A stretch of DNA of 32,000 nt from Acinetobacter bereziniae LMG 1003 = CIP 70.12 (GTDB lineage: Bacteria; Pseudomonadota; Gammaproteobacteria; Pseudomonadales; Moraxellaceae), in NCBI RefSeq assembly GCF_000368925.1, contig NZ_KB849756.1, positions 1-32,000 on the forward strand, written 5' to 3'. The notes under the pieces are model-generated. The model saw only the letters and a list, made by a program, of their open reading frames with translations. It searched no databases and had not been told where the DNA came from. The first letter of the stretch is position 1. Each line of letters starts with the position of its first letter. Made by a program: the position numbers and the translations under genes. Of the stretch, positions 1 to 8,346 are shown one piece after another.

Positions 1-13
1 TATTATGTTAAAT
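1..13 (+). other. Right half of a dif-type Xer site (spacer TA plus XerD arm TTATGTTAAAT), truncated by the window edge
   Basis: TATTATGTTAAAT is identical to the last 13 nt of the gammaproteobacterial dif consensus (GGTGCGCATAA-TGTATA-TTATGTTAAAT). Confidence 0.75.
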
Positions 14-26
14 AAGATATCCAAGA

Positions 27-99
27 CTGTGGCTACACAACGCTATTGTTGCCACAGATCGTCAACGTGAATCCTAATAATTTTAATTCACGTTGACGA
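27..99. repeat. Two stem-loops lying between the two inverted dif-like sites (attP fork region)
   Basis: ctgtggc (27-33) pairs with gccacag (51-57). The 14-bp perfect stem tcgtcaacgtgaat (59-72) pairs with attcacgttgacga (86-99). Confidence 0.8.
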
Positions 100-106
100 C
101 TATCCT

Positions 107-134
107 AAGTAACATAATATTCGTTATGCAAAAT
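107..134 (-). other. Inverted dif-like site (11-6-11): AAGTAACATAA-TATTCG-TTATGCAAAAT
   Basis: The reverse complement ATTTTGCATAA-CGAATA-TTATGTTACTT resembles dif. The XerC-arm core TGCATAA is present and the XerD arm matches TTATGTTAAAT at 9/11. Confidence 0.7.
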
Positions 135-183
135 CCTGCGCTATTTAATTTTATTCCAGGTCAACCCTACTTTTTGTATGGAA

Positions 184-387
184 TTATCTTAACCTATCTA
201 TGTGATGATCTAATTTTATAAATAATAATTTAAGTTGATCTATTTCATCGTAATTGTCTATGTCCAGTTCCCTGATCTGGTCTAAGTACTTCTCCAGTGA
301 ATCACGCATAAAAACATAATCTGATTTGTGTAATACCCCAATGTTTCGATTGTAAAACGTGGTTTTCCATACGTGTTTATTGTTCAT
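184..387 (-). CDS. Hypothetical 67-aa phage cargo protein
   Basis: ORF track. Last gene before the attP region and co-oriented with the phage operon. No recognisable motif. Confidence 0.5.
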   Translation of the reverse strand: MNNKHVWKTTFYNRNIGVLHKSDYVFMRDSLEKYLDQIRELDIDNYDEIDQLKLLFIKLDHHIDRLR

Positions 388-405
388 TGTGTAATATTAT
401 GCCAA

Positions 406-504
406 TCATTCTTCAACATTATCACGAACCGATCTATATAAATTTTTAACACCGTAATAGCCTAATACAAGACAAAATGTAATCATACCAATCCAATAAT
501 CCAT
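406..504 (-). CDS. Small membrane peptide, 32 aa (MDYWIGMITFCLVLGYYGVKNLYRSVRDNVEE)
   Basis: Hand translation, not in the ORF track (<60 aa). SD AGGTGA lies 6 nt upstream of the ATG. Hydrophobic N-terminus. Confidence 0.4.
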   Translation of the reverse strand: MDYWIGMITFCLVLGYYGVKNLYRSVRDNVEE

Positions 505-510
505 TTAAAA

Positions 511-651
511 TCACCTACAATCTTTAATTGAATCAATAAACAATGAACTACTTTTTGCTTTACAAAGTTGTTCATTTGCATCTTGACCATCTTGATAAAT
601 TGGAAAAGAAAAAAATATAACAAATAAAATAATTATTAAAATAAAAGGCAT
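511..651 (-). CDS. Small membrane peptide, 46 aa (MPFILIIILFVIFFSFPIYQDG...)
   Basis: Hand translation. SD AAGGGGG lies just upstream. N-terminal transmembrane segment. Its stop codon lies inside the SD of the next small ORF. Confidence 0.4.
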   Translation of the reverse strand: MPFILIIILFVIFFSFPIYQDGQDANEQLCKAKSSSLFIDSIKDCR

Positions 652-703
652 AGAACCCCCTTTTTTAGATCAAATTATAGGCATCGTTACCCGCATATTA
701 TAG

Positions 704-728
704 ATTGCTATTTCAGTGAAATAGCAAT
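704..728. promoter_or_regulatory. Perfect 10-bp inverted repeat (attgctattt-cagtg-aaatagcaat) overlapping a candidate leftward promoter
   Basis: Read on the minus strand: TTGCTA-N19-TATAAT, with the palindrome filling the spacer. Located in a non-coding stretch of the phage. Confidence 0.35.
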
Positions 729-771
729 AAAAAATGTAATCAGAGGGTCAATGCTCGAATGTTGTTTGTGA

Positions 772-5893: not shown

Positions 5894-7406
5894 GGATAAA
5901 TTCCTTATAAGCAGATTGATTAAGTAGAGGAACACCAACAAATAAAGGTGATTCTTCATCTACATTTATGTTAAAAATTCGTCTGTTAAGACTAGAAAGA
6001 CGTAATGACTGCATTACGGATGCATGTGTAAATTGAAGTCGTTTAGGTACTTCATCTTTGTCTGATGAAATCATGGTCAAAAGAGCATCATCAGAAATGA
6101 TTTTTCTGAATTGACGTATATATTTACCAAATTGAACTTTGAGTACATCTATAGCTTTATCAAAGTTAATAGTTGCTTGTTTATCAACAAGTTCGCATTT
6201 TTCAGGTGCAGTAAAATCATGCAATTGATTACACAATGCTTCTAATGCAGGATATGCACCCTTAAAATATGTTGACGGTGATAAAAGAACATCTAAAGGC
6301 AAATATCGGTCTGATGATTTAAGCTCAAGCTCAAGACGTGTCCAAAGACTAAGTGAATCACCTTCTTTTTTGCCACGCTCATAACATCTTAAAAACTTAG
6401 AACTTTCACGATTTCCAACAGTAAAAGTTAAACCCTTACCGTTAATACGCTTCCAGTCGCCAAGCTTATTAATTTCAGGATTACGACCACCACAGAAGAA
6501 CAAATCTTCATTGTCCCATTGGTCACAAGCTTGAACAGAAACAAATTCACTTTCGAAATCATCAAATGCAATATCGACGCGGTTTAATTTAGGGTTTTTT
6601 GCCTGTGTTTTTAAAAACTTATAAAGCTGTTCATTCCAACCTTTTCGAGCTAAAGCACAGCCCGAGCCATTGATTTGTACACGTATACGATTGTTATTAT
6701 TACCGTATAAAACCATGCCCAAATTATCTTGTAAATCATAGCCATATTTGTCGAAACGTATGCCACACTTACGTTTTTGAGCTATACCAAAGCCAAACAT
6801 CTCAAAGAGTAATTGATCAAGCCATGTTTCAATTGCATCACCAATACCCAAGTCTATTTGCTCTTGGTCTAATTGGAGATATTTATCTCCAAAAGTAGAA
6901 ACACAGAAACTAAATGTTACCCAGTCAAGACCCACAACATTATTTTCAATTGGAGTGCAACGCAGCACAGGTACTACACCCTTTTGAGTTGAAATTAACT
7001 TGTAGTTATCCAAATGACGAGGAAAAGCTTGTGAATCAGATGTTTTTTGTGTATCAGCTACCCCCATATTATAAAAGGGGGGTTCAAGAGACATATCCCG
7101 TGTATTTTTCAAGGGAAAGGTTATTTTTTGTACAAATAAATCCGCAATAGATTGGTCATCTTTTTTCTTAGGTTGATTCAAAGCATTTTCAAATGCAGAG
7201 AACTTATTTTTAACTATGCCCTGCAACATGTTTCTAAGAATGTTTGAATCTTCTAATGAGATTTCACCGAATGACGTGTGAGCTTCAATTTCGTATGTAA
7301 TGTCTTTTTCACGATGATATAACTCATCAAGTGTTAAATGAGCATCATCAAAGGCGTGGATTTTTTCGAGGATTGTTTTCATTATTAAGCACCAAAATAA
7401 CAACAT
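5883..7406 (-). CDS. Rolling-circle replication initiator (Rep_trans / RstA / gpII-like)
   Basis: Motifs LNRVDIAFDD, FLRCYERGKKEG and WTRLELELK are typical of Rep_trans initiators. A more likely start is the ATG at 7382 (MKTILEK...). Confidence 0.8.
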   Translation of the reverse strand: MLLFWCLIMKTILEKIHAFDDAHLTLDELYHREKDITYEIEAHTSFGEISLEDSNILRNMLQGIVKNKFSAFENALNQPKKKDDQSIADLFVQKITFPLKNTRDMSLEPPFYNMGVADTQKTSDSQAFPRHLDNYKLISTQKGVVPVLRCTPIENNVVGLDWVTFSFCVSTFGDKYLQLDQEQIDLGIGDAIETWLDQLLFEMFGFGIAQKRKCGIRFDKYGYDLQDNLGMVLYGNNNNRIRVQINGSGCALARKGWNEQLYKFLKTQAKNPKLNRVDIAFDDFESEFVSVQACDQWDNEDLFFCGGRNPEINKLGDWKRINGKGLTFTVGNRESSKFLRCYERGKKEGDSLSLWTRLELELKSSDRYLPLDVLLSPSTYFKGAYPALEALCNQLHDFTAPEKCELVDKQATINFDKAIDVLKVQFGKYIRQFRKIISDDALLTMISSDKDEVPKRLQFTHASVMQSLRLSSLNRRIFNINVDEESPLFVGVPLLNQSAYKEFIHAI

Positions 7407-7470
7407 GAATAGCCAGAGATAAAACCAAGAACGACACCCAAGGCATAAGAATAATAATTAAAATTAGACA

Positions 7471-7722
7471 TCACTCTTCCCCAAATGCTTCGATCAATTC
7501 TGAATTTGATTCTTTATAAAGATTTGCATACGTGTCGATAACGGTCGGATCGTATGACCACTCATGACATACAAAAGCTAAATGACTTAAACATCTTTGA
7601 GTTGATATCGCAGGTGTCATTGCATCTAAAGCAATCTGCCCTTGGTCAGATACGATCTTCGCCACAGTTTCAAAAGCGCACTGGATGAATTCTTGTTTTG
7701 TATGAAATGATAGTGTAGTCAT
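7471..7722 (-). CDS. Hypothetical 83-aa protein, first gene of the leftward phage operon
   Basis: ORF track. Located immediately downstream of the operator-like repeats. Confidence 0.5.
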   Translation of the reverse strand: MTTLSFHTKQEFIQCAFETVAKIVSDQGQIALDAMTPAISTQRCLSHLAFVCHEWSYDPTVIDTYANLYKESNSELIEAFGEE

Positions 7723-7726
7723 GATT

Positions 7727-7794
7727 CATGTATACATGTTTCTATTTGAGCAAAAGATAACAAATTTACATGTATCATGTAAAGCATGTATACA
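7727..7794. promoter_or_regulatory. Three operator-like repeats CATGTAT(A/C)CA in the divergent phage control region
   Basis: Perfect 12-bp palindrome catgtatacatg at 7727-7738. Near-palindrome tacatgtatcatgta at 7767-7781. catgtataca at 7785-7794. Confidence 0.6.
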
Positions 7795-7820
7795 AGTTTA
7801 TATAGAATTAGGTGGATTTT

Positions 7821-8033
7821 ATGGTTCGGAATCAAAAGCAAATGGCGCAAATGTTAAGATTAAGCAACAAAGAAAAAGAATTGTTGAGAAACAAGGCTGT
7901 AGAAATTAACAAGACTCTAATAAATAAAAGATTAGAACCTGTTAAAGATACAGAGCTTGCGCACATTGTTTTAGAGCAAGGAATTGATTTAATAGAAATT
8001 ACAGAATCAGGGAAATTAATTATCCCAAAATAA
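7821..8033 (+). CDS. Small divergent phage regulator (candidate repressor, possibly ribbon-helix-helix-like)
   Basis: The ORF track starts at GTG 7812. The ATG at 7821 has SD AGGTGGA 5 nt upstream. It is the only plus-strand gene facing the rep operon, analogous to rstR in CTXphi. The fold assignment is tentative. Confidence 0.55.
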   Translation: MVRNQKQMAQMLRLSNKEKELLRNKAVEINKTLINKRLEPVKDTELAHIVLEQGIDLIEITESGKLIIPK

Positions 8034-8051
8034 TTGTTTTTTCAAATAAAA

Positions 8052-8072
8052 AAGAGCGAGTTAATCGCTCTT
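8052..8072 (-). terminator. Stem-loop aagagcga-gttaa-tcgctctt with a T-run on the minus strand
   Basis: 8-bp stem. The A-run at 8046-8053 reads as TTTTTATTTG after the hairpin on the minus strand. The plus-strand side is only weakly T-rich. Confidence 0.5.
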
Positions 8073-8103
8073 CTACTTAAGAAAGATAAAATAAGGAATA
8101 AAA

Positions 8104-8286
8104 ATGAAAAATTTTCTAAACGAAATGACTTGTGAAATTAGTAGACAAATATATTGGAGTGGATTTGCAAATGGGGCATCAATAATAATTTCAATTTGGA
8201 TTGGTTGGGTAGTATATAAGTATTTTAAAAATAAAGATTGCAATATAAAAATTGAAATAAGTGAAAGAAAAGAACCAAAAATGTAA
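8104..8286 (+). CDS. Small membrane protein, 60 aa, at the prophage end
   Basis: ORF track. SD AAGGA. One transmembrane segment (ASIIISIWIGWVVY). Confidence 0.45.
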   Translation: MKNFLNEMTCEISRQIYWSGFANGASIIISIWIGWVVYKYFKNKDCNIKIEISERKEPKM

Positions 8287-8316
8287 AAAGCTAAATAGCC
8301 TTTCCTCTTAGCTTGG

Positions 8317-8346
8317 AAGTCGCATAACGAACCTATTATGTTAAAT
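8317..8346 (+). other. dif-like site with an 8-nt spacer: AAGTCGCATAA-CGAACCTA-TTATGTTAAAT
   Basis: The XerC-arm core CGCATAA and the XerD arm are identical to the dif consensus. The spacer is 2 nt longer than the canonical 6. Confidence 0.7.

Follow-up and report, generated by a model that had tools for sequence, protein, structure and literature searches.

A 32,000-nucleotide (nt) stretch of Acinetobacter bereziniae LMG 1003 (contig NZ_KB849756.1, positions 1 to 32,000; hereafter the window, whose positions serve as coordinates of the element) begins with what is, with near certainty, an intact inovirus prophage located in dif, covering approximately positions 1-8346. What is new here is a mirror-image CTX-type attachment site (attP) in an otherwise known kind of inovirus and Xer-exploiting integrative mobile element (IMEX). 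Taken together, the observations are probably best explained by an intact, dif-inserted inovirus with a CTX-like folded attP that integrates by exchange on the XerD side.

In Vibrio, the hijacking of the XerCD recombinases at dif by inoviruses is textbook knowledge and accounts for the acquisition of the cholera toxin genes; the three known integration modes are termed CTX, VGJ and TLC. Acinetobacter has already been noted for the Xer-driven shuffling of resistance modules. The locus described here and some 40 elements related to it point to an additional, fourth mode in this genus, in which a single-stranded hairpin would be processed on the XerD side.

Insertion at dif and empty sites

The exact Zot protein of the element was found on two contigs, AIEI01000132 (L001) and BBLJ01000040 (L002), both from A. 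bereziniae; the AIEI assembly is that of the type strain LMG 1003 (PMC3556118, PMC4200156). Contig L001 runs past the start of the window and places window position 1 within a canonical 28-bp dif, ATTTCGCATAATGTATATTATGTTAAAT, which consists of the XerC arm ATTTCGCATAA, the central region TGTATA and the XerD arm TTATGTTAAAT. In L001, the XerC arm and central region of the left junction (attL) stand just upstream of the window start, and its XerD arm, in the form TATTATGTTAAAT (TA plus TTATGTTAAAT), occupies positions 1-13 on the plus strand as part of a regenerated chromosomal dif. The right junction (attR, 8317-8346, plus strand) is a hybrid of a phage XerC arm AAGTCGCATAA, an 8-nt phage central region CGAACCTA and the XerD arm. 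The phage is a precise insertion of 8333 bp flanked by the 13-nt repeat TATTATGTTAAAT, and the segments 1-134 and 8334-8467 form direct repeats that are 79% identical and 8333 bp apart. A search for the Escherichia coli dif with up to three mismatches gave no match in the window, because the left site is cut by the window start and the right site has an 8-nt spacer. The first-pass annotation of this DNA had described a prophage bounded by dif-like sites. These sites are real, the left one being truncated by the window, the right one being a hybrid with an 8-nt central region and a further inverted site lying at 105-132; the description is refined to that of a CTX-like folded attP with crossover on the XerD side.

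Based on an exact-sequence look-up of the host VF530 gene (78 aa, 8588-8824), ten loci were retrieved. In six of them (L003, L004, L005, L008, L009, L010), the empty site is found in the order LysR gene, 62-aa open reading frame (ORF), ATTTCGCATAATGTATATTATGTTAAAT and VF530 gene; the VF530 gene is identical in these contigs and the flanks are about 98% identical. The empty dif allele that had been named beforehand as the expectation for a mobile element thus exists in six related contigs that have the site without the phage. The other four loci (L006, L007, L011, L012) carry other Xer-exploiting elements at the same point.

The site might be a secondary dif-like or pdif-module site instead of the main chromosomal dif. 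Additional dif-like sites and dif modules do occur in Acinetobacter chromosomes (PMC12907356), and a pdif-like module lies near dif in the A. gerneri locus L013. We nevertheless consider this very unlikely: the TGTATA spacer and the XerD arm TTATGTTAAAT are listed for the main chromosomal dif of several Acinetobacter species (PMC10132070), the site is a common target of three IMEX types and an insertion sequence (IS) resembling "dif hunters", and, as weak evidence, the cumulative GC skew peaks at the site in a 20-kb empty locus. A scan for FtsK-orienting polar sequences (KOPS, GGGNAGGG) gave 0 occurrences, so it carries no information on polarity.

Directly to the right of the phage, a fossil fork with an inverted dif-like site (8347-8467, plus strand) marks an older integration. 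This fossil lies outside the phage, is present in all strains including those with an empty site, and folds poorly (z = -1.6); in L003, dif and fossil match the window from 8320 onwards at 98%. A second, truncated scar (9046-9090, plus strand), in which a degenerate XerD arm is accompanied by the first part of a fork, is 97% identical to window 4-33. The two scars indicate that the locus was therefore hit repeatedly.

Several observations point to recent activity and turnover. In L001, window position 8333 runs directly into a 100% identical copy of window 1-413, a junction that is the one expected of a replicative form or a tandem prophage and in line with the circular replicative form that the first-pass annotation had proposed to look for. 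At this junction, the XerC arm and central region seen at attR stand in front of the fork of the phage itself. The window starts at exactly the point where the path through this junction and the chromosomal path diverge, and presumably is the product of a branch in the assembly graph. The phage copies in L001 and L002 are 100% identical. In L007, the host flanks are 99.98% identical to the window, yet a different related phage and a mini-derivative occupy the site; turnover at the site is therefore recent. Two related elements from metagenomes, L023 and L024, have terminal direct repeats and were therefore assembled as circles.

These data bear on whether the element is a decayed or defective prophage remnant that is fixed at the locus and immobile. 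The scars at 8347-8467 and 9046-9090 adjoin the phage and deletion derivatives of it occur in L011, both of which would be in line with such a remnant, whereas the core ORFs are all open and preceded by Shine-Dalgarno motifs, the L001 and L002 copies are identical, a circle or tandem junction is present, and both the six empty-site contigs and the almost identical L007 flanks around a different phage speak for mobility. A remnant is thus highly improbable.

As a separate observation, L002, which stems from an NBRC assembly, corresponds to window 694-8264, so that the phage forms a contig of its own with both ends inside the phage. This suggests breaks in the assembly caused by multiple copies or by repeats. 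The end at 694 is close to the deletion endpoint at 702 of a mini-derivative described below.

Crossover position

In Xer recombination, the central region is separated from the XerC arm by XerC cleavage of the top strand, and from the XerD arm by XerD cleavage of the bottom strand (PMC4246890). At the locus studied here, attL consists of the host XerC arm and the host TGTATA, attR of the phage XerC arm and the phage CGAACCTA, and the sequence shared by both is restricted to TA plus the XerD arm. Because attL keeps the host central region and attR the phage central region, the crossover is placed at the XerD cleavage point, and as read from the junctions it very probably took place on the XerD side.

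This pattern is general. At about 50 sites in many Acinetobacter hosts, TGTATA is always associated with a host-type XerC arm and followed by the fork, and phage-type XerC arms (xxGTCGCATAA) are always associated with a central region of 7-8 nt, with 0 exceptions. In elements with 7-nt central regions, the identity between attL and attR stops exactly at the boundary of the XerD arm. The homology to the host TGTATA lies on the XerD side, as attP2, the second and inverted site of the phage, ends in ATA and attP1 ends in TA; at their XerC-side end, the phage central regions always begin with C, and the host one with T. In all elements with a phage-type junction, the genes run opposite to the dif-top strand.

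The Phage_CRI-type elements at this dif (in L006, in L011 and in the deposited Acinetobacter phage M02) serve as a control for this way of reading junctions. They follow the classical CTX pattern, with host XerC arm and 12-nt phage central region on the left, phage XerC arm and TGTATA on the right, and genes on the dif-top strand. The junction reading can therefore tell both modes apart; in L011, both classes of elements even lie on opposite sides of one dif.

Integration of the classical CTXphi type, in which XerC would exchange the top strand of the folded plus-strand attP with dif and replication would resolve the product, has to be weighed against these junctions. The overall architecture is similar to that of CTXphi, with two inverted dif-like sites about 90 nt apart, one over-long central region and a forked hairpin (PMC4246890), and the replication initiator is likewise of the RstA/Rep_trans type. 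This mode predicts, however, a host XerC arm with the phage central region at attL, a dif regenerated on the XerD side and genes on the dif-top strand, and the window phage and all its relatives are the opposite on each count. The predicted pattern is instead that of the Phage_CRI elements at the same site, and the C of the phage against the T of the host at the first XerC-side base also speaks against a XerC exchange. We regard this explanation as exceedingly improbable.

The products of a XerC-first exchange on either strand and of a recombination through attP2 were also written out; the junctions or gene orientations that they predict are absent. Only two reactions reproduce the window exactly, namely an exchange of attP1 at the XerD point on the plus-strand hairpin, or the same exchange on duplex attP1.

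Folded attachment site

In the circular form of the phage, attP1 (AAGTCGCATAA-CGAACCTA-TTATGTTAAAT, with the 8-nt central region) is followed 91 nt away by the inverted site attP2. The latter, ATTTTGCATAA CGAATA TTATGTTACTT (105-132, minus strand), forms the top strand of the folded site on plus-strand single-stranded DNA (ssDNA), and the spacer in between (14-104, minus strand) forms the fork, with a third stem and two sub-hairpins (GTCAACGTGAAT.../CTGTGGC...). The phage plus strand is the coding-sense strand and corresponds to the window minus strand; it folds into a forked hairpin with a free energy of -42.5 kcal/mol, compared to -13.75 +/- 2.8 kcal/mol for shuffled sequences (z = -10.2). 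Within this hairpin attP1 and attP2 pair with each other and two extra bases (CC) are bulged out, and the predicted structure is a mimic of a duplex dif that has a 6-nt central region and a 2-nt bulge.

By a pattern scan of IMG/VR, the same architecture was found in 41 contigs of 4-15 kb, most of them 5-9 kb, two of which are circular. It is also present in A. gerneri (L013), the single relative returned by a scan of genome contigs with the Rep protein. The structure was assessed on an alignment of 21 attPs with 55 base pairs, using 500 shuffles and controls in which the pairing was slid along the alignment. Overall, 90.2% of cells were paired, compared to 80.6% in the shuffles and 27-42% in the slid controls, and 25 pairs showed changes on both sides; the observed values were reached in none of the shuffles (0/500). 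Compensatory changes occurred in 13/14 and 5/10 pairs of the two sub-hairpins of the fork, and all 21 attPs individually fold into the same shape, including those with unrelated fork sequences. The central regions of attP1 and attP2 covary and fall into three classes (CGAANNTA/CGAATA, CGTAATT/CGTATA and CTTCATT/CTTATA); among the non-matching junctions (n = 6), five are demonstrably boundaries between different elements. The bulged position is variable (CC, AC, GC or TC). On the coding strand, G.T pairs outnumber A.C pairs by 47 to 17, an excess that fits folding of the plus strand.

The other reaction that reproduces the window is of the TLCphi type. Here, attP1 of the replicative form would recombine with dif in a XerD-first reaction activated by FtsK or by an unrecognised phage factor, and attP2 and the fork would serve as a packaging signal or minus-strand origin. 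Such an exchange accounts for attL and attR exactly as observed, IMEXs that recombine XerD-first are known and occur widely (PMC6744903), and the small gene p67 is a conserved terminal gene beside attP, as is xafT in Vibrio CTX-I phages (PMC12715192). On the other hand, the spacer of duplex attP1 is 7-8 bp long and not 6, and a 6-nt top-strand spacer is restored only in the hairpin, where the extra bases are bulged out and vary freely, as expected if they are unpaired. The covariation of the two central regions and the retention of XerC- and XerD-arm cores by attP2 in every element likewise argue against it; moreover, the XerD arm of attP is canonical, which in TLCphi is degenerate, and DUF3653 was not found. 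In view of these points, a TLCphi-like reaction appears unlikely, and folded ssDNA is a fairly likely substrate, as judged from the sequences of the sites.

Proposed mode of integration

For the favoured XerD-side exchange on the folded attP, the following course can be envisaged. The folded plus-strand ssDNA would be bound by XerCD, and XerD would cut the bottom strand of the host dif and the 3' half of the hairpin. One pair of strands would be exchanged, the host 5' end (TAT...) pairing with the ATA of attP2 and the phage 5' end (TA...) with the host, and the resulting pseudo-Holliday junction would be resolved by replication. At the XerC side of the prophage, dif would thereby be left unaltered (attL), and the opposite end would carry a non-functional hybrid whose spacer measures 7-8 bp (attR). 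As this attR spacer would be inert as a duplex, the prophage would be stable, and because dif is regenerated at attL, new elements would stack to the right of dif, so that the array would grow on one side. Classical XerC-side elements of the Phage_CRI type would stack to the left of dif. Rolling-circle replication by Rep_trans, starting from tandem copies or the replicative form, would supply progeny plus strands with a complete attP, as for CTXphi, and virions assembled by Zot would exit through a host secretin. We lean slightly towards XerD as the sole catalyst with subsequent replicative resolution, catalysis by XerCD and the identity of the partners being presumed.

Several points weigh against this reading. 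Each mechanistic step is read from junction sequences, and a XerD-started exchange between double-stranded attP1 and dif, as for TLCphi, would yield identical junctions. In vitro, cleavage of dif by A. baumannii XerD depends on FtsK-gamma, although some central regions permit FtsK-independent cleavage (PMC11705084). A XafT/DUF3653 homologue was not found in the phage by Pfam searches of all ORFs or by hhalign, which gave probabilities < 2% for eight phage protein families against the DUF3653 protein of Cf1c. In the 7-nt classes, the base beside the XerD cleavage point is mismatched with the host, which should hamper one of the two ligations. The 21 aligned attPs were picked for matching central-region classes, a choice that biases 2/55 pairs, and the fork hairpins might covary because they act in packaging or as an origin or priming site of the minus strand, and not in integration. 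Finally, the identity of the site as the main dif is drawn from the site sequence and the weak GC skew.

Considering both sides, we put forward as a tentative proposal, with slightly less than even confidence, that the Rep_trans inoviruses of Acinetobacter and their satellites represent a fourth mode of Xer exploitation. This mode would be a mirror image of that of CTXphi, with a folded plus-strand ssDNA attP and a bottom-strand exchange catalysed by XerD without XafT; XerD might be activated by the bulged substrate itself, by FtsK or by a novel factor, for example p67. It would regenerate dif on the XerC side, and XerD-side and XerC-side elements would be arrayed on opposite flanks of one dif. 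If true, not only XerC but also XerD can be guided by a folded ssDNA site, which raises the question of what activates XerD in the absence of FtsK and XafT and would explain how two IMEX classes share one dif without displacing each other. In practical terms, the junction rule (host XerC arm, TGTATA and fork on the left; GTCGCATAA and 7-8 nt on the right) permits an exact delimitation of such prophages and satellites in Acinetobacter genomes.

Comparison with known Xer-exploiting elements

The element shows the general features of an IMEX, having no recombinase of its own and lying at the chromosomal dif with a dif-like attP and hybrid junctions. With the CTX type it shares the two inverted sites that fold plus-strand ssDNA but not the crossover at the XerC point, and with the TLC type the crossover on the XerD side but neither XafT (DUF3653) nor a single double-stranded attP with a degenerate XerD arm. 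The VGJ type, defined by a single double-stranded attP with homology on the XerC side, differs from the two sites and XerD-side homology observed here.

Comparing the phage to CTXphi of Vibrio cholerae, both are inoviruses without integrase and secretin genes that use a Rep_trans/RstA-type initiator and integrate at dif. Both have a divergent small regulator beside attP, form tandem arrays and are accompanied by satellites, and in both, a forked hairpin forms from a pair of dif-like sites in inverted orientation, spaced by about 90 nt, one of which has an over-long central region. CTXphi, however, crosses over at the XerC point, using "TGT" homology, and has the XerC arm as its end repeat; the phage studied here crosses over at the XerD-arm boundary, and its end repeat consists of TA and that arm. 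Furthermore, dif is regenerated on the XerD side in CTXphi and on the XerC side here, the prophage genes are antiparallel to dif-top here, unlike those of CTXphi, and the over-long central region comprises 12 nt in CTXphi compared to 7-8 nt here. Protein identity is at most ~36%.

IMEXs of the TLCphi/XafT (DUF3653) type are similar in their XerD-side crossover, with attL made up of the host XerC arm and central region and attR of those of the phage. TLCphi encodes XafT and relies on one double-stranded attP whose XerD arm is degenerate, in contrast to the folded pair of sites and canonical XerD arm found here, where DUF3653 was not detected; the new functional dif is attR in TLCphi and attL here. 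IMEXs of the VGJphi/Cf1c type are also inoviruses that integrate at dif through the host XerCD, but they use a single double-stranded attP with XerC-side homology, and Cf1c carries a DUF3653 protein.

Within the genus, phage M02 (OQ693633) and the elements of the Phage_CRI type found in L006 and L011 have the dif target, Zot, DUF2523, a TspB-like pIII and a folded two-site attP in common with the window phage, and they likewise lack an integrase. They differ in their Phage_CRI-type Rep, in an attP1 central region of 12-13 nt that starts with TGT, in the XerC-side crossover and in having their genes on dif-top; their Zot proteins are 32% identical to that of the window phage. The Af filamentous phages of A. 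baumannii are likewise inoviruses with Zot, CoaB and Rep and a TspB-like pIII domain. They occur as prophages, often in tandem or flanked by replication and regulation modules, and "probably use host integration machinery", with neither an attP structure nor a crossover site described (PMC11209303). In the literature searched, mostly outside subscription journals, neither this attP nor XerD-side hairpin integration is described.

Gene content of the prophage

According to the ORF listing and profile searches, window 1-8346 holds a compact gene set with all structural genes on the minus strand and a unit length of 8333 bp. The first-pass annotation had recognised a filamentous-phage module set on this strand, and hidden Markov model searches support its Rep_trans, Zot and DUF2523 assignments as well as the pVIII-, pIII- and pVI-like proteins (phrog_2145, phrog_17788 and PF10734). 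A Zot/pI-like ATPase, a rolling-circle initiator, small coat and pIII/pVI-like proteins and a compact one-directional genome of 5-10 kb are features of inoviruses (Tubulavirales), and all of them are found here.

Unless stated otherwise, the following genes lie on the minus strand. The Rep_trans (RstA-like) rolling-circle initiator (5883-7382; 499 aa, or 507 aa from an upstream ATG at 7406) matches PF02486 (E=2e-20, 73.7 bits compared to a cut-off of 29.6) and phrog_453 (E=9e-94), and is at most 36% identical to Rep proteins of deposited inoviruses. The Zot/pI-like assembly ATPase (1305-2774; 489 aa) matches PF05707 (E=2.8e-7, 30.6 bits compared to a cut-off of 20.3) and phrog_197 (E=8e-52), with the GKS of its Walker A motif at residues 11-13. 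The pVI-like minor coat protein (DUF2523, 2853-3131) is recognised by PF10734 (E=5e-10) and phrog_1242 (E=6e-17), and the pIII-like adsorption protein (3132-4817; 561 aa) by phrog_17788 (E=1e-70). As read from its sequence, the latter comprises a signal peptide, a Cys-rich N-terminal domain, Gly/Ser/Thr linkers and a C-terminal anchor; its C-terminus matches a TspB-like family weakly (21 bits compared to a cut-off of 24) in NCBIfam, which otherwise gave nothing useful. The pVIII-like major coat protein (4925-5194; 89-aa precursor) matches phrog_2145 (E=7e-9), and its score of 14.8 bits against Pfam Phage_coatGP8 is under the cut-off.

With regard to the pVII/pIX-sized peptides proposed earlier, ORFs of such size and position do exist at 5210-5398 (62 aa, matching phrog_13391), 5364-5483 (39 aa) and 5490-5588 (32 aa), and their roles are putative. 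Similarly, the supposed ssDNA-binding protein is a putative 102-aa protein in the gene-V position (5585-5893), consistent in location and size and overlapping the end of the Rep gene by 11 nt; its family match is to phrog_4994 (E=3e-28), a PHROG of unknown function, without a Pfam match. A single-sequence AlphaFold2 (AF2) model of it was all-beta with a mean predicted local distance difference test (pLDDT) score of 49, which is unusable, and was not taken to a fold search.

The long operon starts with p83 (7471-7722; phrog_20873, E=3e-46), which is kept in phages and satellites and has 28 distinct homologues in related loci. Divergent from it, a putative regulator of 70 aa in the rstR position (7821-8033, plus strand; phrog_5642, E=7e-23) is followed by a bidirectional terminator hairpin (8050-8074) and, according to the ORF listing, by a 60-aa membrane ORF (8104-8286, plus strand) as the last phage gene before attR. 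At the other end lie a 102-aa zinc-ribbon ORF (987-1295; weak zinc-ribbon matches only), a 36-aa ORF (880-990) that shares an ATGA overlap with it, two small hydrophobic ORFs without family matches (511-651, 46 aa; 406-504, 32 aa) and p67 (184-387), the last phage gene, which adjoins attP2 and has no Pfam match. In ~38/41 occurrences p67 is located 13-450 nt from attP2. Its AF2 model consists of three helices (pLDDT 79), for which a Foldseek comparison with the PDB returned generic helical hairpins only, every E-value being >= 2. From its position, p67 may be a candidate Xer accessory factor.

The earlier reading of the element as intact rather than decayed is upheld by ATGA start/stop overlaps at 5585-5588 and 987-990, by the pIII- and pVI-like genes that abut as TAA-ATG, by GGAG-like Shine-Dalgarno motifs upstream of most genes and by core ORFs that are all open. 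Also as annotated before, profile searches found no recombinase (integrase, transposase, resolvase) and no secretin family, including pIV, in any ORF of at least 25 aa within 1-8346. The site, the absent recombinase and the precise junctions support a dependence on the host XerCD, and the absence of a pIV gene would point to export through a host secretin. Scanning for promoters and terminators gave no more than chance would, the hairpin at 8050-8074 excepted, and a tRNA scan detected none. There were no matches in sequence searches of the PDB with p83, p67 and the 70-aa protein p70, in a tblastn search of deposited phages with p83, or in near-identity DNA searches of deposited phages and plasmids.

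Satellites and neighbouring features

Satellite or mini elements are found at the same dif in L011 (4635-6607), L007 (7654-9759), L012 (5709-9757) and L013 (3321-5784, reverse-complement coordinates). One mini element is an exact deletion derivative of the window phage, in which window 1-702 is joined to 7059-8333. Other satellites measure 2-2.4 kb, are sometimes in tandem and carry the same hairpin attP and a p83 homologue without structural genes; they are therefore RS1- or miniphage-like. A satellite ORF of 113-145 aa matches the N-terminus of Rep and always ends just past the motif PP[FI]YNM[RG].

Elements of the Phage_CRI type lie to the left (XerC-arm side) of the same dif in L006 (7265-9758), L011 (68-4645) and L055 (phage M02, 3889-3984), and their integration swaps the host XerC arm ATTTCGCATAA for ATTTCGTATAA. 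In A. gerneri, a segment beside the chromosomal dif (L013, 2048-3331, reverse-complement coordinates) resembles a plasmid-type pdif module. Situated between a pdif-like site (ATTTCGCATAA GGTGTA TTATGTTAATT) and dif, this segment has two ORFs (93 and 100 aa) as well as an inverted site (ATTTCGTATAA CGCCCA TTATGTTAAAT). To the left of dif in L001, 5 bp separate the XerC arm from the N-terminus of an IS-like transposase (8761-9048; HTH_28/HTH_23), in agreement with the "dif hunter" insertion sequences of the IS1202 family (PMC10132070); the contig terminates inside this IS.

On the right side, the two attP scars flank the gene for the DNA-binding protein VF530 (8588-8824). All strains examined have this gene, which may have been cargo of an anciently integrated element and since become fixed. 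In L005 (9748-9880), the fossil fork has its second sub-hairpin inverted compared to L003 (9748-9880) and the other strains, as if the palindrome had flipped. Between the scars and the first ordinary host genes, window 9000-11000 is a conserved region of low GC content (26-30%) with only small ORFs of unknown function (79, 150 and 85 aa). It is followed, about 2.7 kb from dif, by a HipA-like kinase (PF07804) and an overlapping upstream gene of the Xre-type helix-turn-helix family, which form a HipBA-type toxin-antitoxin pair (11071-12710); in L011, the hipA gene is broken into two ORFs. Further away, two paralogous regulators of the IclR family are diverged and inverted (29496-29650 and 31750-31904, 155-nt arms, 74% complementary), and together with paralogous major facilitator superfamily (MFS) transporters (17952-19160 and 30127-31296) they flank fatty-acid/aromatic-CoA catabolic genes.

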